Shown here: positions 1-8,518 of the stretch, piece after piece
How the letters are laid out: every line of letters starts with the position of its first letter
How positions within the stretch are numbered: the first letter of the stretch is position 1
Sequence record: PQ511146.1
Source of the DNA: Escherichia phage NHEP1
Length of the DNA stretch: 64,000 bases
Strand: one strand, 5' to 3'
Made by a program: the position numbers and the translations under genes
Notes under the pieces: generated by a model
Told to the model about the DNA's origin: nothing
The model's database searches: none
The model's input: the letters and a program-made list of their open reading frames with translations, nothing else

Positions 1-1467
1 CAACAATCACGTGGCGGTTCTGCAACAGTATCATTCCTTGCACTGGACCCGCAGATTGATGAGCTAATCCGTTTGAGAAACCCTATGACTGTTGCTTCAA
101 AAAGAATCAACACCATGGACTACTCTATAGGTATTAATAGGTCGTTTATCAACCGTGTGGCTAAGAATTTAGATTGGATGCTTGTTTCTTATAAGCACGC
201 GCCTCAACTGCATGAGGGTATCTTCACCATGTCTATGGAGGAGTTTGATGCAGAGGTTGATCGTATCGCTAAAGATGACAGTATTCCTAAAACATGGATC
301 CGAGCTAGAGATCTTGCTGTTGAGCTGATCACGCAGCGTACCGAGGTTGGAAGGCTGTACGTATACTGGACAGATGAGATGAATAGACATACACCTTTTA
401 AAGATGTAATCTATTCAAGTAACCTGTGTGCAGAAATAGCCCTCCCGACAAAAGGCTATTCAGATATGCGTAATATCTTCAAGTACGATGTTGATGATGG
501 CGAAGTTGCATTGTGCTTCCTGTCATCTCTTGTAGCTGGAAGGGTTACCCCAGAGGAGTATGAGGATGTTGCATACTACACGGTGCTTATGATTGACAAT
601 GTTATGGAAATCATGACATATCCGTATGAAAATATGGAGAGCACTGTTAAAAAACGCAGATCCATTGGGGTTGGCCTTACTAATGTTGCACATTTTATTG
701 CCAGCCACAAGGTTACTTACGGATCTCCTGAAAGTAAACAGCTTGTTCACGATCTTGCAGAGCTCCACAGCTACAGCTTGCATAAGGCAAGTTTACGATT
801 GGCAAAAGAGCGTGGTGTCTGTGAGTGGATGCATAAAACAAAATACCCGGAGGGTTGGTTACCAATCGACACCTATAACAAAGAGGTCGATAGTGTGGTG
901 AAAGATCCTTCTCTTAAGCAGGATTGGGAAGGGTTACGTAAAGAAATCATTGAAAATGGTGGGCTACGTAATAGCGTTCTTGAAGCATATATGCCTAATG
1001 AAAGCTCTTCGCTGGCAACAAACACCACTAACGGGGTTTATCCTGTCCGTGAGCACATTATCTTTAAAAAGTCGCCACAAGGTCAGGTGCTGTTTATCGT
1101 TCCTGAATATGATGAACTGAAAGAGTATTATACCTCGGCTTGGGACGTTGATACTAACGACATGATTGATATGTATGCTGTGATTCAAAAATTCACAGGG
1201 CAGGCAATCAGTGCTGACCTATATATTGATTACACCAAGTTGAAAGATGGTAAAATTTCAATGAAGGAGCAGCTGGGGTATCTTATCCGTGCTACTAAAT
1301 TCGGGATGAAGACATGGTATTACTTAAACTCTCGGGTTGGTGCTGGTGACTCTTTGACAGAGGAGCTTCACGCGAAGAAACAGGCTGAAGATGAAACCAG
1401 AAAGAACTATCCTTTGATTGCAGATAGTTCAGTTGAAGGTCCATATTGCGAAAGTTGTGCACTGTAA
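1..1467 (+). CDS. nrdA: Ribonucleotide reductase class I large subunit, 3' portion (gene begins upstream of window)
   Basis: Frame open from nt 1; active-site-like NLCAEI motif; C-terminal Cys pair CESCAL; followed by nrdB. Confidence 0.9.
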   Translation, partial: QQSRGGSATVSFLALDPQIDELIRLRNPMTVASKRINTMDYSIGINRSFINRVAKNLDWMLVSYKHAPQLHEGIFTMSMEEFDAEVDRIAKDDSIPKTWIRARDLAVELITQRTEVGRLYVYWTDEMNRHTPFKDVIYSSNLCAEIALPTKGYSDMRNIFKYDVDDGEVALCFLSSLVAGRVTPEEYEDVAYYTVLMIDNVMEIMTYPYENMESTVKKRRSIGVGLTNVAHFIASHKVTYGSPESKQLVHDLAELHSYSLHKASLRLAKERGVCEWMHKTKYPEGWLPIDTYNKEVDSVVKDPSLKQDWEGLRKEIIENGGLRNSVLEAYMPNESSSLATNTTNGVYPVREHIIFKKSPQGQVLFIVPEYDELKEYYTSAWDVDTNDMIDMYAVIQKFTGQAISADLYIDYTKLKDGKISMKEQLGYLIRATKFGMKTWYYLNSRVGAGDSLTEELHAKKQAEDETRKNYPLIADSSVEGPYCESCAL

Positions 1468-1475
1468 TTTAAAAA

Positions 1476-1495
1476 GGGGCTTCGGCCCCATTTTA
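1476..1495 (+). terminator. Stem-loop GGGGC-TTCG-GCCCC plus T-run between nrdA and nrdB (terminator or attenuator)
   Basis: Inverted repeat followed by ATTTT seen directly. Confidence 0.5.
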
Positions 1496-1506
1496 GAGGT
1501 AGAATA

Positions 1507-2595
1507 ATGGCTGTATTTAATACTGAGAACACTGCTCATAAAACTGGTGATTATCCGCTGTTTTTAGGACAGCAGATGGGGATGTACGACTCTATTAACA
1601 AAAAGTACCCACAGCTGTTTGAACTATACAAAAAACAAAAAGAACAAGATTGGGCAGAGGACGAAGTAGATTTGTCACAGTCTATTTCGGATTTCGTAAC
1701 ATGCTCAAAGTCAACTTACGATGTGATGGTGCAGACACTTATGTGGCAATGGGAGGCAGACAGTGTTGCAGCAAGATCTATCATTTGTCTGTTTTCACCA
1801 TTTATCACCAATAGTGAACTTTTCACCTTGTTGATGAAGCAGTCTGAGATTGAGGTTCTTCATGCACTAACTTACTCAGAGATTGTTAGACAATGCCTTC
1901 CTAATGCTCGTGAGATTATAGAAGAGATTCAGGAAAACCAGAACGTGCTGAGCAGATCTGGAGTTATTGTCAAATACATGCAAGAGCTTGAGGTTATTGG
2001 TGCAAAATACCGACTGGATCCTTCCAGTGTTGAAGAAGATGTTGTACGGAAATGTATCCTTAGAGCACTTTTTGCACTTTTAGCTCTAGAAAGTATTGAG
2101 TTTATTGCAAGTTTTGCATGTACGTTCGCAGTAGCTGAGCAAGGTATTTTTGTTCAAGTTGCACAACTCGTTCAAAAAATTATGCTTGATGAAATGCTGC
2201 ATTCGAAAGGCGATTTTGCTATCATCGATATCCTGCTTGATGATCCTGCATGGGAGCAAAGCTTTCTTGAGATTAAGGGTGAGTTAAAAGAAATTCTTGA
2301 CGAAGTGCGAATCAAGGAGTACGGTTGGAGTGACTATATTTTCAGCGAAGGAAGAGCAATTATAGGTCTTAACTCACCATTACTTAAAGAATGGGTTGAC
2401 TATAACTGCTCACCGATTTATGATTACTACAACATCGACAAAGACTTTGTGCCGCCAACAAAGGACCCGTTACCGTTTATGCAGGTGTGGATGAAACCTT
2501 CACTGCAACAGACGGCTAACCAGGAAATGTCTAACACCGACTACCGCGTCAACACAACTGTTAATGACGCTGAAGAAGAAATTTGGGAGTTTTAA
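1507..2595 (+). CDS. nrdB: Ribonucleotide reductase class I small subunit
   Basis: 362 aa, immediately downstream of nrdA, size and position typical of R2; no intron-like interruption seen. Confidence 0.8.
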   Translation: MAVFNTENTAHKTGDYPLFLGQQMGMYDSINKKYPQLFELYKKQKEQDWAEDEVDLSQSISDFVTCSKSTYDVMVQTLMWQWEADSVAARSIICLFSPFITNSELFTLLMKQSEIEVLHALTYSEIVRQCLPNAREIIEEIQENQNVLSRSGVIVKYMQELEVIGAKYRLDPSSVEEDVVRKCILRALFALLALESIEFIASFACTFAVAEQGIFVQVAQLVQKIMLDEMLHSKGDFAIIDILLDDPAWEQSFLEIKGELKEILDEVRIKEYGWSDYIFSEGRAIIGLNSPLLKEWVDYNCSPIYDYYNIDKDFVPPTKDPLPFMQVWMKPSLQQTANQEMSNTDYRVNTTVNDAEEEIWEF

Positions 2596-2598
2596 TAT

Positions 2599-2877
2599 AT
2601 GAGCTGTGAAAAATCTTTTTTCATTATCATCTACGGTAAGGATAACTGCCCACATTGTGTAAGAGCAAAAGAATTTGCAGCAAGCAAAGGTATACCTTTC
2701 GTATACAAGACGCTTGGTGAAGGATACACAAAAGAAGAGCTTATTGAGAAGTGTAGTCCATTTGTTCCCAGAACGTTGCCTCAGATCTTCTTGGAAAGCA
2801 ACCTTGATAGTGTCCACATCGGTGGTGCTGACGATTTCATCTCTTTTGTTAAGAATGGTTTTGGAGAGAAAAAGTGA
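2599..2877 (+). CDS. Glutaredoxin/NrdH-like thiol-disulfide oxidoreductase
   Basis: 92 aa with CPHC redox motif near N-terminus; sits between nrdB and nrdD. Confidence 0.7.
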   Translation: MSCEKSFFIIIYGKDNCPHCVRAKEFAASKGIPFVYKTLGEGYTKEELIEKCSPFVPRTLPQIFLESNLDSVHIGGADDFISFVKNGFGEKK

Positions 2878-4997
2878 AAATTGTAAAACGGGACGGTAGA
2901 GAAGAGGTCTATAACGGAGTTAAGGTAATCAAGGCGGCAGAGTCCGCCTTACTTGAGTCTGGGCATACTGAAGAAGAAGCTTACCGGATCGCTTGTACGG
3001 TTAATGAAGTTGTTGCCAACAATCTACCAACCGACCAGTGCACGATCTCTGTAAAAAATATCCATATCCTTGTTGAAGATGCTCTTATGGATATGGGTTT
3101 AAAATGTGCAGCCAGAGAATATATCCAGTATAGACAGACAAGAGATAATAACAGAGAGGCAGGTGGAAAACTGCTTGCAGATATTAGTGGCTTCTTGGAT
3201 CGAACTTGTGATGAATTTACAAAAGAAAACGCAAATAAGCCCACTAATCATGTACATACTCATCGTGACCTGCTTGCAGGTATCCTTAGCAAACACCTTG
3301 CATCAACACAGATACTGCCAGATCGTGTCTCCGAAGAGCACAACAAGGGATTCATCCATGTGCATGATCTTGACTATCTGATCAGTCCGTTAACAAACTG
3401 CTGTTTGGTGAATTATCCGGATATGCTGGAAAACGGATTCAACATTGGCAACGCCCATGTCAGTAAGCCGAAGTCAATAGGGGTTGCAACAACAATCCTC
3501 AGCCAAATCTCTAGTGCAGTAGCTAGTGCTCAATATGGTGGTCAGACCATGAGCCATATTGATCATTACCTGGCGCAGTATGCTGAAGCAACCTATGAGA
3601 AGAATCTTAAATTTTGTCAGGAACATTGGTTGCCGGATGCTGAGACTGTTGCAATGCAAATGACGGATAAAGACGTGTTTGATAGTATGCAAACTTTGCT
3701 ATACCAAATCAATACGTTAACTTCTGTCAACGGGCAAACCCCATTCATCACATTAAGTTTAGGACTGGATACCTCAATCTTTGGTAGAATGATTACCAAA
3801 AACTACCTGAAAGTCCACAAAATGGGTCTTGGTGAAGAACGTATCACACCTGTGTTCCCTAAGGTGCTGTTCTTCCTGGAGGAGGGTATCAACATGAACC
3901 CTGGGGATCCTAACTATGATTTGAAACGATTAGCTCTGGAATGCTCTGCAGAGCGGATTTATCCTGACTTCGTATCTGTACCACTAAATAGAAAAGTGAC
4001 AGGTTCAACAGAAGGTAATGTCACAAGCATGGGTTGCCGGAGTTTTCTTAGCAAATACAATGACTTGGAAACAGGAGAGGAGAAATACCTTGGCAGATTT
4101 AACTTAGGTGTTGTTAGCCTTAACCTACCAATGATTGCGGCAAAAGCTAAAACGGAAGGTGTTGATTTCTTTGCAGTTCTTGACGAGTACTTGGATCTGG
4201 CATACGAGGCTCACCTTGTAAGGGTTAACCGTCTAAAAGGAACAAAGGCAGGGCAGAACCCCATCATGTGGTGTGAAGGAGCCCTTGCTCGCCTGGATCC
4301 TGAAGAGAGCATTGATAAACTCTTCTATGACGGGTATGCTTCCATAAGTATTGGGTATATTGGTGTGTATGAAACCTGCCAGATTTTAGGCAGAGAGGGA
4401 GACAAGTCCTTAGCTCTTGGGATCCTTCAACACATGAAAGACGCTTGTGATCGGTACAAAAAAGAAAGTGGTCTGGCATTCAGCTTGTACGGCACTCCTT
4501 CAGAGAGCTTGTGCTATAAGGCTGCAACATGTCTAGATCGTGAATACCCTGAAGTGTTGAAGCACGAGCACGAATACCTTACCAACAGTTTCCACCAACC
4601 CGTGTGGATCAATAGCTCACCTTTTGACAAGTGGAAGTATGAGGAAGGTTTTGCTATGATCTCTTCTGGCGGCAACATTGGATACATAGAAACACCTAAC
4701 CTGAAAAACAACCTGGATGCTTTGGAATCCCTTGTCGATTTCGGGTATAAACACATTATGTATTTTGGTATTAACCAACCTGTGGATAAATGTCTTAAGT
4801 GCGGATTCTCTGGTGAGTTCAGTGCAACAGCTAAAGGCTTTGTATGCCCAGAGTGCGGAAACCATGAAGAGGGAACGATCAGTGTGATTAGACGTGTATC
4901 TGGGTATCTGTCCAGTCCAAACTCCCGCCCTTACAATAAGGGTAAGCAGGCTGAGGTTATAGAACGGGTTAAGCACTACGGAAGTTGTGGTTGCTGA
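2874..4997 (+). CDS. nrdD: Anaerobic ribonucleoside-triphosphate reductase (class III)
   Basis: 707 aa; C-terminal zinc ribbon CLKCGF...CPECG and glycyl-radical motif RVSGY. Confidence 0.9.
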   Translation: MKIVKRDGREEVYNGVKVIKAAESALLESGHTEEEAYRIACTVNEVVANNLPTDQCTISVKNIHILVEDALMDMGLKCAAREYIQYRQTRDNNREAGGKLLADISGFLDRTCDEFTKENANKPTNHVHTHRDLLAGILSKHLASTQILPDRVSEEHNKGFIHVHDLDYLISPLTNCCLVNYPDMLENGFNIGNAHVSKPKSIGVATTILSQISSAVASAQYGGQTMSHIDHYLAQYAEATYEKNLKFCQEHWLPDAETVAMQMTDKDVFDSMQTLLYQINTLTSVNGQTPFITLSLGLDTSIFGRMITKNYLKVHKMGLGEERITPVFPKVLFFLEEGINMNPGDPNYDLKRLALECSAERIYPDFVSVPLNRKVTGSTEGNVTSMGCRSFLSKYNDLETGEEKYLGRFNLGVVSLNLPMIAAKAKTEGVDFFAVLDEYLDLAYEAHLVRVNRLKGTKAGQNPIMWCEGALARLDPEESIDKLFYDGYASISIGYIGVYETCQILGREGDKSLALGILQHMKDACDRYKKESGLAFSLYGTPSESLCYKAATCLDREYPEVLKHEHEYLTNSFHQPVWINSSPFDKWKYEEGFAMISSGGNIGYIETPNLKNNLDALESLVDFGYKHIMYFGINQPVDKCLKCGFSGEFSATAKGFVCPECGNHEEGTISVIRRVSGYLSSPNSRPYNKGKQAEVIERVKHYGSCGC

Positions 4998-5060
4998 TAC
5001 TTGACAAAAGTCACAAGGATGTGGCATATTGTTGTCACACAGTAAACTAGGAGGTGCAAT

Positions 5061-5177
5061 ATGTCTACAGGTATTTATAAAATTTGCAAGTGTGGTTGTC
5101 ATTGCAATCTTCGTTGGTGTAAGGCACTGGACGATTTTATTTGGCATTGTCCTAAATGCGATGCGGAGTACGTATGA
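5061..5177 (+). CDS. Small Cys-rich zinc-ribbon-like protein (38 aa), stop overlaps nrdG start
   Basis: AGGAGG 6 nt upstream of ATG; translation MSTGIYKICKCGCHCNLRWCKALDDFIWHCPKCDAEYV; ATGA overlap with nrdG; below the 60-aa track cutoff. Confidence 0.5.
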   Translation: MSTGIYKICKCGCHCNLRWCKALDDFIWHCPKCDAEYV

Positions 5178-5647
5178 ATATTGTCGGGTATACAGAGATA
5201 TCTTACACCGAGGGGCCAGGCATTAGGACAGCTTTGTGGGTATCTGGGTGCCCACACGCTTGTCCTGGTTGCTTTAATCAAGCATTTTGGTCAAAAGATA
5301 AAGGAAGAGAGTTCACCGAAGAAGATTTGCAGAAAATTTTGTCGGATTTAGACAATGAATCTGTATGCGGTATTTCTTTGCTTGGTGGAGAGCCTTTGGC
5401 TACGTATAATGAGCCCGGTATTATTAAACTTATGAGGAGAATTAAGGAAAAGTTTGGTGACAAGAAAACTATTCTTGTGTATACTGGGTTCACATTTGAG
5501 CATATCTCTAGTGATGTTCTTGAGCTGGCTGATATCATCATTGATGGCAAGTATGTAAAAGATTTACCAACAAAGAAACCATTCCGAGGCAGCGATAACC
5601 AAAGAATGTTTAAAAAGGTAGCAGGCGGTTGGGTTCAGGTTGACTAA
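5174..5647 (+). CDS. nrdG: Anaerobic RNR activating enzyme (radical SAM)
   Basis: CPHACPGC (CxxxCxxC) cluster motif; start moved to ATG 5174 (MNIVGY). Confidence 0.85.
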   Translation: MNIVGYTEISYTEGPGIRTALWVSGCPHACPGCFNQAFWSKDKGREFTEEDLQKILSDLDNESVCGISLLGGEPLATYNEPGIIKLMRRIKEKFGDKKTILVYTGFTFEHISSDVLELADIIIDGKYVKDLPTKKPFRGSDNQRMFKKVAGGWVQVD

Positions 5648-5650
5648 TCG

Positions 5651-5680
5651 TTGACAAAGCTTTGGTAAGTTGGTTATAAT
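5651..5680 (+). promoter_or_regulatory. Sigma70-like promoter TTGACA-N18-TATAAT
   Basis: Consensus hexamers seen at 5651-5656 and 5675-5680. Confidence 0.5.
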
Positions 5681-5709
5681 TATCGTAATGAAAGCAGAGG
5701 AGGTGCCAA

Positions 5710-5823
5710 ATGGCTAAAAAAGCCTTGAAGAAGGCGTACAAGAAAGAGATTGCGCTTGAGCTTAAGAAAAAACACAAGCGTGAAAAGAAATATCATGAAG
5801 ATGAAGAGGGGGTGCAACAGTGA
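5710..5823 (+). CDS. Small lysine-rich protein (37 aa)
   Basis: GAGGAGG 6 nt upstream of ATG; MAKKALKKAYKKEIALELKKKHKREKKYHEDEEGVQQ; stop overlaps GTG start of next ORF. Confidence 0.4.
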   Translation: MAKKALKKAYKKEIALELKKKHKREKKYHEDEEGVQQ

Positions 5824-6170
5824 CACAAGAGCGTATTGATTTAGCCAGTAAGTTTGTAGATCTCATTTTGCCACGGTTGGTTACTCAACATGCAGACGCT
5901 ATTTCTACTAATCTTGATGGCTTACGCCTAATGCTGAACCGAACAGATGACCCACGTATTCGGGCCGATTTAGAGGCCTCTGCCAACAAACTGGAAAAGT
6001 TCTTGCAAGTAGACACGCAAGAAGCCTTGCACAAGATTATGGTGGAAGGTTTCTCTAAAGAATTCACCGTTAAAGAGCTTAAGGAGCTGATCCGCCAAGA
6101 AGAGATGAATATCCGAGTTCAGGCTGTTGCAAGCAGCATGGAAGCGGCTATTGAAAAACTGTTGCAGTAA
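5820..6170 (+). CDS. Hypothetical protein (GTG start)
   Basis: Track ORF, 116 aa, coupled to upstream small ORF. Confidence 0.5.
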   Translation: MTQERIDLASKFVDLILPRLVTQHADAISTNLDGLRLMLNRTDDPRIRADLEASANKLEKFLQVDTQEALHKIMVEGFSKEFTVKELKELIRQEEMNIRVQAVASSMEAAIEKLLQ

Positions 6171-6208: not shown

Positions 6209-6997
6209 ATGGGTCGAGCTAAAGAAACAAAACGCATGCGTGATGAAGCCAGAGAGGCTCGCAAATCTGATCGCCTGCGTAAGGCTGCTGAGAAATTTGC
6301 TGACGAACGAGAGCACACAGCTCCAGCTCTCCGACCAATGAACAAAAAGCAGCAAAAGTATCTTGATTATCTAGGATCGCGTAAGATTATTATTGTAAAC
6401 GGTGTGTTTGGATCCGGTAAGACATTCATGGCATCCGCATATGCAGGTGATCTTTTGCGTAAGAACGAGATTGATAAGATCATTGTTGCACGCCCTTACG
6501 TTCAGACAGGAAAGACTTCAGGGTTTAAACCTGGAAACGCAATGCAGAAACTGTGGCCCTATCTCCGAAGCATGATGGACACGATTTGTCGTCGTGTTGG
6601 CAAAGGTGCTTTTGCCGCAATGCTGGGAGATGGTCAGAACAGTCGTATCGAGATCTGTGAAGTTGAAAGCATTCGTGGTCGTAGTTTCGATGAGCGGTGC
6701 TTTGTCCTAATTGACGAGGCACAGCAAACTAACCCTGAAGAAATGTTGTCAATTATCACAAGGATCTCTGATCAGGCCACACTTGTAATCATGGGTGATA
6801 ATAGCCAACGTGACATCCCTGGTAAGTCTGGACTTGCATGGGTAACGGATTTCTTTACTCGTCATCCAGATCCTGAGGTTGGGATGATTAGCTTTGATAG
6901 CCCAGATGATGTCGTTCGTTCCGGGTTGGGTCGTCAGATTGCACTCAATCTTATCGAGGATCGTGCAAATCATATTTGGACCCCTGTTTCCGAGTAA
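6209..6997 (+). CDS. phoH: PhoH-like ATPase
   Basis: Walker A GVFGSGKT and PhoH-like downstream motifs; RBS AAAGGAG upstream. Confidence 0.9.
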   Translation: MGRAKETKRMRDEAREARKSDRLRKAAEKFADEREHTAPALRPMNKKQQKYLDYLGSRKIIIVNGVFGSGKTFMASAYAGDLLRKNEIDKIIVARPYVQTGKTSGFKPGNAMQKLWPYLRSMMDTICRRVGKGAFAAMLGDGQNSRIEICEVESIRGRSFDERCFVLIDEAQQTNPEEMLSIITRISDQATLVIMGDNSQRDIPGKSGLAWVTDFFTRHPDPEVGMISFDSPDDVVRSGLGRQIALNLIEDRANHIWTPVSE

Positions 6998-7042
6998 TAC
7001 AGAAGGGTGGTTATTCCACCCTTAAATATCTAAAACGATTAT

Positions 7043-7070
7043 TGACAAACAGATAAGTTTTAGGTATTAT
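7043..7070 (+). promoter_or_regulatory. Sigma70-like promoter TTGACA-N16-TATTAT
   Basis: Hexamers seen upstream of 7096 ORF. Confidence 0.4.
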
Positions 7071-7095
7071 CGAACAAAACAAGGAGAATGACAGT

Positions 7096-7407
7096 ATGGC
7101 TACAATACAAGAGAGACTGAATAAGATATACTGCCTATTTGTCTATAACGGTGAGACAATTTTGGCAAACAAAGGATACAAGAATGTGTGGATTAAGGAC
7201 AGCGGTGGTAACATAATCAACTTGGCGCTACTACGTGAGCGAAGACACCGATTCTTCACTGAGTCCCGTGTTATTGAAAGCAACACATTTTACAGAACAG
7301 GGGATAAAGTAATTGTTGACAATGACACGTGGTATGTGGTAGACTGGCAATCGTTGACCTGTGATGCTTCTGACAATTGTAAGTATTCCATGGTAATTGC
7401 TAAATAA
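7096..7407 (+). CDS. Hypothetical protein
   Basis: Track ORF 103 aa with AAGGAG RBS. Confidence 0.5.
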   Translation: MATIQERLNKIYCLFVYNGETILANKGYKNVWIKDSGGNIINLALLRERRHRFFTESRVIESNTFYRTGDKVIVDNDTWYVVDWQSLTCDASDNCKYSMVIAK

Positions 7408-7468
7408 AGGCAAATGAGAATCAGGTTTAAATAGATCGCTTTTAACTTTCCAACATTAAGGACCTCAC

Positions 7469-8518
7469 ATGAATTTAACACCTCGCAGCACCATGGTACA
7501 CGGCATGAAAGAAAAACAGAACGGCTTCGAACCGATGAGTAATAAAATGTTTGGTATGCCTGGTGGTATTATGGAAACATACAGCTACCCAACGCCAGTT
7601 GTTGACCACGTGCTTTATATTGACGATCTTGAGGATTTGCAGGATCATATGTCCCGTTTGCAAACAATTCGTATGGCACAGCCGGAAGAAAGTATCCGTG
7701 TAATTGTTAACAGCCCTGGTGGTTGCGTCCACATTGCCATGGCGTATTTGCAGGCATTCCGCGAGTCTCAGGCAAGCGTTGTTGTACACGCTGAAGGGAT
7801 GTGCTGCTCAGCAGGAACAATCTTATGGCTGGGTTGCAAAGAACGAACTGTGGCTCCGGACACAGAGTTTATGTTCCACTACTATCAAGGTGGCACCTAT
7901 GGCAACGGTGTGAACATGAATACTCAGGTCAACTACTGGAAGAAACGTTTTGAACGCCTGATCGAAAAATACTACGGTGGGGTTCTGACAGAAGATGAGA
8001 TCGCATCCATCACGGCTGGTGGAGAAGTGTGGTTGGATGGAGAAGAGCTGGCAGCTCGAACTGGTGCTATCATTCTGGACGATGAAAACATTCAGCGCAT
8101 TCAGAATGGGCAGAAACCGAAAAAGCTTTTGGCAAAAAGTGATGAAGAAGGTGTGCTAGGCGAAGCAGGCCTGCCAGAGATTCACCAATGCACATCTCTG
8201 GACGAGCTGGTTCACGCTGTTGAGTCTGCAAAAGCAAATGGTATGAAAGGTGATGTTCACACTGTGTTCCTGAATCTGCAGATGGAGAGTGGTGAGACCG
8301 TTAAGATTGCACTGGGTGAGATTACCTCGGAAGATCTGCAGCGATTCTCTGTGGTAGAGCTTCAGGACATTTTGTCCCAATTGAAAACCACCCTGAACGG
8401 AGGTGAAGAAGTTCAGGTTAAAGATAAGACCCGCAAGCGTCTGGTGGACAATATTATTAAAACAGCAAAAGAGCTCAATGAAAAAATCCTGGGCGCAGGA
8501 ATTATCGAAGAAGCTTAA
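7469..8518 (+). CDS. ClpP-family serine peptidase-like protein with C-terminal extension
   Basis: VNSPGG motif, candidate Ser in MCCSAG and His in MFHYYQGG spaced as in ClpP. Confidence 0.65.
   Translation: MNLTPRSTMVHGMKEKQNGFEPMSNKMFGMPGGIMETYSYPTPVVDHVLYIDDLEDLQDHMSRLQTIRMAQPEESIRVIVNSPGGCVHIAMAYLQAFRESQASVVVHAEGMCCSAGTILWLGCKERTVAPDTEFMFHYYQGGTYGNGVNMNTQVNYWKKRFERLIEKYYGGVLTEDEIASITAGGEVWLDGEELAARTGAIILDDENIQRIQNGQKPKKLLAKSDEEGVLGEAGLPEIHQCTSLDELVHAVESAKANGMKGDVHTVFLNLQMESGETVKIALGEITSEDLQRFSVVELQDILSQLKTTLNGGEEVQVKDKTRKRLVDNIIKTAKELNEKILGAGIIEEA

Follow-up and report, generated by a model that had tools for sequence, protein, structure and literature searches.

The systems closest to the locus considered here are those of Escherichia phage rV5 and its relatives, and the genome paper of rV5 lists both an aerobic and an anaerobic ribonucleotide reductase (PMC3606486). 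For phage CB7, which belongs to a sister genus (Certrevirus) of the same subfamily, NrdA/NrdB, NrdD/NrdG and a supporting glutaredoxin were described (PMC7344957). More generally, in a survey of 685 phage genomes, class I together with class III reductases were found in 27% of the phages with a reductase, mainly those of facultative anaerobes and those from sewage; among phages of facultative anaerobes, the majority have this combination, which was read as advantageous under fluctuating oxygen (PMC3653736). Here, we analyzed the reductase genes located at the beginning of a 64,000-nucleotide (nt) stretch of Escherichia phage NHEP1 DNA (GenBank accession No. PQ511146.1), which as a whole is hereafter called the window. 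They very probably constitute a deoxynucleotide-supply cluster of an rV5-like phage with two independent reductases, by which DNA precursors would be made with or without oxygen. It should be stressed that such a cluster is ordinary and already annotated in rV5-like phages. With descriptions going back to 2013 for rV5 and to the 1990s for T4, its importance beyond correct annotation is slight, the loose ends of some interest being a genus-restricted Cys-rich micro-protein, an unusual CPHC active site in the glutaredoxin-fold protein and a homing-intron polymorphism of nrdD.

Positions 1-6000 of the window were compared with phage genomes using megablast, which gave matches to 135 records, 117 of them covering at least 80% of the query. 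The closest was Escherichia phage B9-1 (98.8% identity), followed by ECP26 and ECP32 (98.6%), and the remaining Vequintavirus phages, including FV3, rV5 derivatives and Murica, showed 93-95% identity. Judged by its sequence, the window can be assigned to an rV5-like (Vequintavirus) myovirus genome of approximately 136 kb. A comparison with related phage genomes had been recommended in an earlier note on this DNA, and it revealed an identical gene set and order annotated in the Vequintavirus relatives. rV5, B9-1, ECP26, FV3 and Murica have the same genes in the same order, with DNA identities of 93-99%, and in each nrdG is followed by the promoter known as P118 in rV5. The differences are allelic only: an nrdD intron is present in FV3, slur16, FFH2 and JEP1 and there is none in NHEP1, and the content of the nrdD-nrdG gap varies (see below). 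In the annotated relatives, the class Ia enzyme is entered as ribonucleotide reductase alpha and beta chains, the small reductant as glutaredoxin 1 and the class III enzyme as anaerobic ribonucleoside-triphosphate reductase with a small activating subunit.

The identities of the genes, their synteny and their conservation were established directly. The presence of nrdA, nrdB, a glutaredoxin-fold gene, nrdD and nrdG in that order, as claimed in the earlier note, is confirmed by very strong family matches, all on the plus strand, and the proposed co-occurrence of an aerobic (class Ia) and an anaerobic (class III) reductase is fully supported by both the family matches and the catalytic residues. 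Based on the alignments, the catalytic residues of all the reductase proteins are intact, the equivalent of NrdA C225 lying outside the window. The module was also called complete, which does not hold for the window, where nrdA is truncated at the edge and represented only by the C-terminal 488 of approximately 771 codons.

The nrdA gene is considered partial because its frame is open from base 1 and its homologue in ECP26 (2316 nt; ECP26 positions 2152-4467) begins approximately 849 nt before the point corresponding to the window start. The NrdA fragment matches the barrel domain of the reductases (Pfam Ribonuc_red_lgC, E = 7.8e-88), with the match beginning at profile position 75. In the alignment with the Escherichia coli enzyme, SNLCAEIA (nt 418-441) corresponds to N437/C439/E441, VALCFLS holds the equivalent of C462 (the second redox cysteine), TWYYLN that of the Y730/Y731 radical-transfer pair, and the C-terminal YCESCAL that of the C-terminal cysteine pair serving re-reduction. 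The equivalent of C225, upstream of the window, was observed in ECP26 only. The full-length NrdA of ECP26 scored 500 in TIGR02506 (NrdE_NrdA; cutoff 341) and 520 in the class-1a equivalog model NF006578 (cutoff 813). It aligns to E. coli R1 from position 12 onward, loosely (HMMER), and no Pfam ATP-cone (the overall activity site) was found in it at E <= 0.01; a degenerate ATP-cone in the N-terminus of NrdA is possible.

The NrdB protein matches Pfam Ribonuc_red_sm (E = 6.1e-29), and among solved structures its best relatives are R2 proteins of the E. coli type (E = 1e-33). The diiron ligands D85, E116, H119, E195, E229 and H232 correspond to D84, E115, H118, E204, E238 and H241 of E. coli, the radical-bearing Y123 to Y122, and the radical-transfer residues W49 and Y346 to W48 and Y356. 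These assignments mark NrdB as a diiron-tyrosyl small subunit of class Ia with a ferritin-like fold. Its score falls below the cutoff of the class Ia beta equivalog NF006576 (151 bits vs. 346), and the protein represents a divergent phage lineage.

The product of the next gene matches Pfam PF00462 (E = 6.9e-9, 36.2 bits vs. a cutoff of 22.9), and among solved structures E. coli Grx1 (1ego, E = 7e-11) is closest to it; in the alignment with Grx1, CPHC is placed on CPYC, while the TLP (cis-Pro) and IGGADD motifs are placed on TVP and IGG. The canonical CPYC site is not found, and the active site is C17-P-H-C20 (window 2647-2658). Vequintavirus phages share CPHC, whereas Salmonella phage PVP-SE1 has CQHC, and the histidine is therefore kept across genera. 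The CPHC dipeptide is known from DsbA, and this site may shift the redox potential of the phage glutaredoxin. The score of the protein is also below the GrxA equivalog cutoff (53.8 bits vs. 84).

NrdD matches the barrel model Pfam NRDD (E = 2.8e-161) as well as Gly_radical and ATP-cone, scores above the equivalog cutoff of NCBIfam NF006732 (827.7 bits vs. 657), and has T4 NrdD (1h78) as its best solved relative (E = 1e-167). In the alignment to T4, the glycyl-radical residue G677 corresponds to G580 and the thiyl C388 on the finger loop to C290, M386-G-C388, N410 and C176/C177 are kept, and C640/C643/C658/C661 fall on the four zinc cysteines of T4, before the glycyl loop. The Met-Gly-Cys motif and the asparagine occur as in both T4 and E. 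coli; the Met-Gly-Cys context in NrdD marks the formate-using subtype. NrdG was recognized by NCBIfam TIGR02491 (151.6 bits vs. a cutoff of 126.1), with an alignment running from residue 3 of the 157-aa (amino acid) version, and by Pfam Fer4_12 (E = 5e-43); Radical_SAM was also matched, and the cluster motif is C26-x3-C30-x2-C33. For nrdG, a start at 5174 is consistent with ECP26, Murica and rV5, in all of which a gene of 474 nt is annotated. The list of open reading frames (ORFs) also contains an upstream ATG (5156), which was rejected, since both the family model and the annotation of the relatives favour 5174.

Taken together, these residues would allow two separate routes to DNA precursors. 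NrdB would build its diiron-tyrosyl radical using oxygen, and the radical would reach the active-site cysteine of NrdA via the conserved tryptophan and tyrosine residues; NrdA is expected to reduce nucleoside diphosphates. The oxidised NrdA cysteines would then be re-reduced through the C-terminal Cys-x-x-Cys tail by the glutaredoxin-fold protein of the neighbouring gene, probably drawing on host glutathione. On the anaerobic side, NrdG, with its 4Fe-4S cluster and S-adenosylmethionine, would install the glycyl radical on G677 of NrdD, and NrdD would reduce nucleoside triphosphates with formate as the most likely reductant, under a predicted on/off control by ATP and dATP exerted through the ATP-cone. 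As is established for these enzyme classes, several factors that the module does not encode must come from the host: the class III enzyme needs flavodoxin with its reductase, S-adenosylmethionine and formate, and the glutaredoxin presumably needs glutathione and glutathione reductase. Together, the two enzymes could provide DNA precursors for the phage both when its facultatively anaerobic gut host has oxygen and when it does not. The ability to make its own precursors under both conditions is relevant when rV5-like phages are to be directed at E. coli O157 in the gut, which is largely anoxic. The benefit under variable oxygen, which the earlier note also proposed, is the conventional reading of such a gene pair; we infer it from a correlation in the literature, and it fits the published surveys.

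The two reductases might instead be kept for the flux of deoxynucleoside triphosphates (dNTPs) and for independence from the host, i.e., for drawing on both the nucleoside diphosphate and the nucleoside triphosphate pools and for escaping host regulation or dNTP-depleting defences, with oxygen being incidental. We find this quite unlikely. Oxygen destroys the class III glycyl radical and class Ia enzymes need oxygen for radical formation, and with such opposite needs there is no joint gain of flux under any one condition. Furthermore, in the survey of phage genomes, the distribution of the class I and class III pair tracks facultatively anaerobic hosts, although large-genome lytic phages commonly bear reductases regardless of niche, as the flux explanation would have it (PMC3653736). 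Also in its favour, the ATP-cone of NrdD and the divergent N-terminus of NrdA suggest phage-specific regulation, and some relatives from the genus Certrevirus manage without nrdD and nrdG (PMC7344957).

The supply of precursors with and without oxygen remains the reading that we favour, and several points weigh against it. The anaerobic enzyme is evidently dispensable for some relatives, given the Certrevirus members that lack nrdD and nrdG (PMC7344957). As no Pfam ATP-cone was found in ECP26 NrdA, the overall activity control of the phage enzyme may differ from that of E. coli, and since nrdA lies only partly in the window, its predicted completeness is drawn from near-identical relatives. 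The reductant of the glutaredoxin and its partner are not certain, because the protein has CPHC instead of CPYC and scores below the GrxA equivalog cutoff. Finally, the expression and activity of the cluster, like the reductants used, are what we infer from the sequence.

The best-known phage system of this kind, that of T4, is alike in having a class Ia enzyme, a small glutaredoxin-fold thiol reductant (nrdC) and a class III enzyme (nrdD = sunY) with its activase nrdG, and group I introns with homing endonucleases invade reductase genes in both the T4 and the rV5-like lineages. However, the T4 genes are dispersed, with nrdD, nrdG and nrdC not found within 43 kb around nrdA-mobE-nrdB, whereas here all the genes lie within approximately 6.5 kb, and this tight clustering is the main organisational difference. 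In addition, T4 NrdD (605 aa) is devoid of the ATP-cone present in its counterpart from NHEP1, and the active site of the T4 reductant, CVYC, differs from the CPHC found here. Salmonella phage PVP-SE1, which represents another genus (Seunavirus), retains the nrdA-nrdB-grx-nrdD-nrdG order as well as the nrdA/nrdB hairpin, but has an extra 115-aa ORF before grx, lacks the 38-aa Cys-rich ORF and has no promoter following nrdG.

NrdAB, Grx1 and NrdDG of E. coli belong to the same enzyme classes and have the same catalytic residues, and NrdD of the phage shares the ATP-cone architecture of its E. coli counterpart and scores above the equivalog cutoff. In E. coli, the nrd and glutaredoxin genes are found at separate loci. 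As the closest solved relatives of the phage NrdA and NrdB are E. coli enzymes, the cluster, or a part of it, could be thought of as a recent capture of host nrd genes, carried as a passenger block. Such an origin is highly improbable. Positions 1-4000 of the window gave no blastn match among 5,426 complete E. coli genomes, and this complete lack of DNA similarity led us to reject a recent pick-up from the host. The proteins also miss the E. coli-type equivalog cutoffs by a wide margin (520 vs. 813 for NrdA and 151 vs. 346 for NrdB, and the glutaredoxin is likewise below), the best solved relative of NrdD is the T4 enzyme, and the synteny is kept across Vequintavirinae genera.

The features of the region are collected in Table 1. 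The gene order described as contiguous in the earlier note does hold, except that a 38-aa Cys-rich ORF intervenes between nrdD and nrdG, separated from nrdD by a 63-nt gap. The GTG start of nrdD overlaps the stop of the glutaredoxin gene as GTGA, and the small ORF overlaps nrdG in a similar manner; these 4-nt start/stop overlaps, together with the tight packing, suggest that the genes of the cluster may be co-translated.

Table 1. Features of the NHEP1 reductase cluster and its downstream neighbours (positions in the window).
Feature	Position	Strand	Basis or remark
nrdA, 3' part	1-1467	+	Frame open from base 1; Pfam Ribonuc_red_lgC
GC hairpin with UUCG loop, nrdA/nrdB gap	1476-1489	+	Folding energy vs. 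shuffles, conservation
nrdB, class Ia small subunit, 362 aa	1507-2595	+	Pfam Ribonuc_red_sm
Glutaredoxin-fold gene, 92 aa	2599-2877	+	Pfam Glutaredoxin
nrdD, class III reductase, 707 aa, N-terminal ATP-cone, intron-less	2874-4997	+	Pfam NRDD, Gly_radical, ATP-cone
Empty homing site in nrdD, codon 287/288 junction (VNG/QTPF)	3734-3735	+	Intron position in relatives
Promoter-like site TTGACA-18-CATATT, upstream TG	5001-5030	+	10/12 hexamer matches
Weak hairpin inside promoter-like site, just 3' of nrdD stop	5010-5025	+	Folding vs. shuffles
38-aa Cys-rich ORF MSTGIYKICKCGCHCNLRWCKALDDFIWHCPKCDAEYV	5061-5177	+	phrog_20137
nrdG, radical-SAM activase of NrdD, 157 aa	5174-5647	+	NCBIfam TIGR02491
Perfect sigma-70 consensus promoter (rV5 'P118')	5651-5680	+	12/12 hexamer matches
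K-rich ORF, 37 aa	5710-5823	+	phrog_7670; GAGGAGG ribosome-binding site
116-aa ORF, function unassigned	5820-6170	+	phrog_7650
phoH-like ATPase gene, downstream neighbour	6209-6997	+	Pfam PhoH, E = 3.6e-47
Near-consensus promoter TTGACA-17-TATTAT, 11/12	7042-7070	+	Precedes 103-aa ORF 7096-7407

The comparison of nrdD alleles revealed that the gene of FV3 holds 798 extra nt (FV3 6734-7531), placed exactly between codons 287 and 288, i.e., at window 3734|3735. In FV3 and many other phages, nrdD is annotated as two ORFs flanking an HNH endonuclease gene. Of the 117 records with a match to the 271-nt segment that includes the site, 81 span it at a single place, in contrast to the other 36, of which those listed break at the site; at least three of the 81 spanning records have a shorter insertion of approximately 257 nt, probably without an ORF. 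About a third of the relatives bear a group I intron with an HNH endonuclease, and nrdD of NHEP1 is the intron-less allele. The assignment of the FV3 insert to group I introns with an HNH endonuclease is a prediction based on several features. The end of exon 1 (...CAACGGU) pairs with GCCGUUG near the 5' end of the intron, with a terminal U-G pair, and the intron ends with ...ACAG; predicted splicing restores VNGQTPF, with three synonymous differences from the flanking codons of the window, where GGG CAA ACC stands for GGT|CAG ACT of FV3. Scanning of the window and FV3 with Rfam at gathering thresholds gave no matches, and in a relaxed scan the 3' core AAGAGAUAGUCUGG with its hairpin matched Intron_gpI (E = 4.6e-4, 25 bits vs. 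a gathering score of 50). The ORF within the FV3 intron encodes an HNH_3 domain and an I-HmuI-like domain. In the tblastn listing around the intron site, the T-even alleles shown were all intron-less. The empty site makes NHEP1 a natural recipient allele for homing experiments. For the related phage CB7, the splicing of HNH introns in reductase genes was shown by reverse transcription PCR (PMC7344957).

Another question concerned the regulatory elements. The earlier note listed internal stem-loops and, before the small K-rich ORF, a consensus promoter among the features of the module, which would imply that they are control elements of the reductase genes, and the region does contain a 12/12 promoter and a stable hairpin. 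The promoter TTGACA-18-TATAAT, the sole 12/12 site in 7.5 kb, is real, with perfect matches expected by chance approximately 0.003 times in 7.5 kb on both strands (our own calculation), while promoter-like sites overall are not enriched (18 vs. 16.3 +/- 3.6 in shuffles). It starts, however, four bases past the nrdG stop (5647), outside the 1-5647 region to which it had been ascribed, and faces downstream, away from the module and toward the K-rich ORF, so that it serves the next genes and not the reductases. The RefSeq record of rV5 lists it under 'Sigma70-type promoter; P118', i.e., as belonging to ORF 118, and its hexamers are invariant in nine relatives, with a varying spacer. Based on this sequence context, P118 would mark the end of the reductase module and open the next transcription unit, comprising the K-rich ORF and the 116-aa ORF, to which phoH probably also belongs.

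As for the stem-loops, only the one between nrdA and nrdB stood up to the comparison with shuffled sequences. This hairpin, GGGGCUUCGGCCCC, has a folding energy of -14.6 kcal/mol (z = -3.0, and 0 of 200 shuffles fold as well), and it is invariant in ECP26, FV3, Murica and PVP-SE1, in the last of which the flanks have diverged and a T-run follows; it is probably a leaky terminator or an RNA-stabilising element. The hairpin at 5010-5025, after nrdD, was no better than shuffles (z = -0.36). The weaker site in which it lies is kept in ECP26, FV3, Murica, rV5 and phita32, whereas an inserted gene takes its place in nom, naswa and Mangalyan; from its position, this site could drive the 38-aa ORF and nrdG. 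With the promoter pointing away from the module, one hairpin alone being significant and the weaker site lost from relatives with an insertion there, we hold it barely credible that the promoter and stem-loops together form an internal control system of the reductase genes. A 'terminator' annotated in Murica inside the 38-aa ORF was also rejected, as the equivalent stretch of the window gave z = -1.0 vs. shuffles.

The 38-aa ORF MSTGIYKICKCGCHCNLRWCKALDDFIWHCPKCDAEYV, which was missed in the earlier note, is preceded by an AGGAGG ribosome-binding site, and its stop overlaps the nrdG start (ATGA) at 5174. It shows a full-length match to phrog_20137 (E = 6e-30) and is present in 121 phage records, all of them rV5-like. 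Among nine equal-length copies, 16 codons vary, 10 of them purely synonymously (four in Cys codons), and the protein has seven invariant cysteines and one histidine; this synonymous bias and the invariant cysteines indicate that the protein is under purifying selection. Its composition makes a small metal-binding protein the probable product. No Pfam or NCBIfam family was matched, nor any family beyond PHROG, and an exhaustive HMMER search of 1.84 billion cluster representatives gave five matches, three of them true relatives from the same phage family and the other two rejected as repeat-protein artefacts. The possibility that the ORF is a copy of the C-terminal zinc ribbon of NrdD was also rejected (BLASTP E = 0.9). 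The AlphaFold model is of low confidence (predicted local distance difference test, pLDDT, 62.7; predicted template modelling score, pTM, 0.29).

In NHEP1, this ORF is the only one in the nrdD-nrdG gap. In rV5, naswa, Mangalyan and phita32, two further small ORFs (34 aa and 78 aa) are located there, before nrdG, and in nom and naswa, nrdD is followed by a gene for a 310-321-aa protein, whose T5orf172 and treble-clef zinc-finger domains give it the look of a free-standing endonuclease. In PVP-SE1, the 38-aa ORF is absent and nrdD overlaps nrdG directly. Judging from these arrangements, the gap appears to be an insertion hot spot, and the adjacency of the 38-aa ORF to nrdG hence argues only weakly for a functional link. 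It is unlikely that the protein is an unrecognised accessory of the class III reductase, e.g., a rubredoxin-like or zinc-ribbon donor of electrons or metal to the NrdG cluster, or a protectant. Were it so, the ORF, always found between nrdD and nrdG, would not be an unrelated gene of the hot spot.

Downstream of P118, the K-rich ORF matches phrog_7670 of unknown function (E = 5e-20), is annotated as hypothetical in the relatives and has a homologue in PVP-SE1; no Pfam or NCBIfam family was matched by it. The 116-aa ORF overlaps it by GTGA and matches phrog_7650 (E = 2e-55), with no Pfam match. The near-consensus promoter located past phoH (7042-7070) is kept in ECP26, FV3 and Murica.

It is also worth mentioning that about 20 unannotated GenBank records (MG0656xx) titled 'Campylobacter phage' are approximately 90-94% identical to this cluster of an E. 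coli phage; these are probably mislabelled or co-isolated rV5-like coliphages. Within the window as a whole, no tRNA genes were found, and very few ORFs of at least 150 aa are present between 12 and 35 kb. The sign of the GC skew flips at approximately 20000 and 61500, and the strand of the large ORFs switches at both places, which fits the boundaries of the transcription units as described for rV5.

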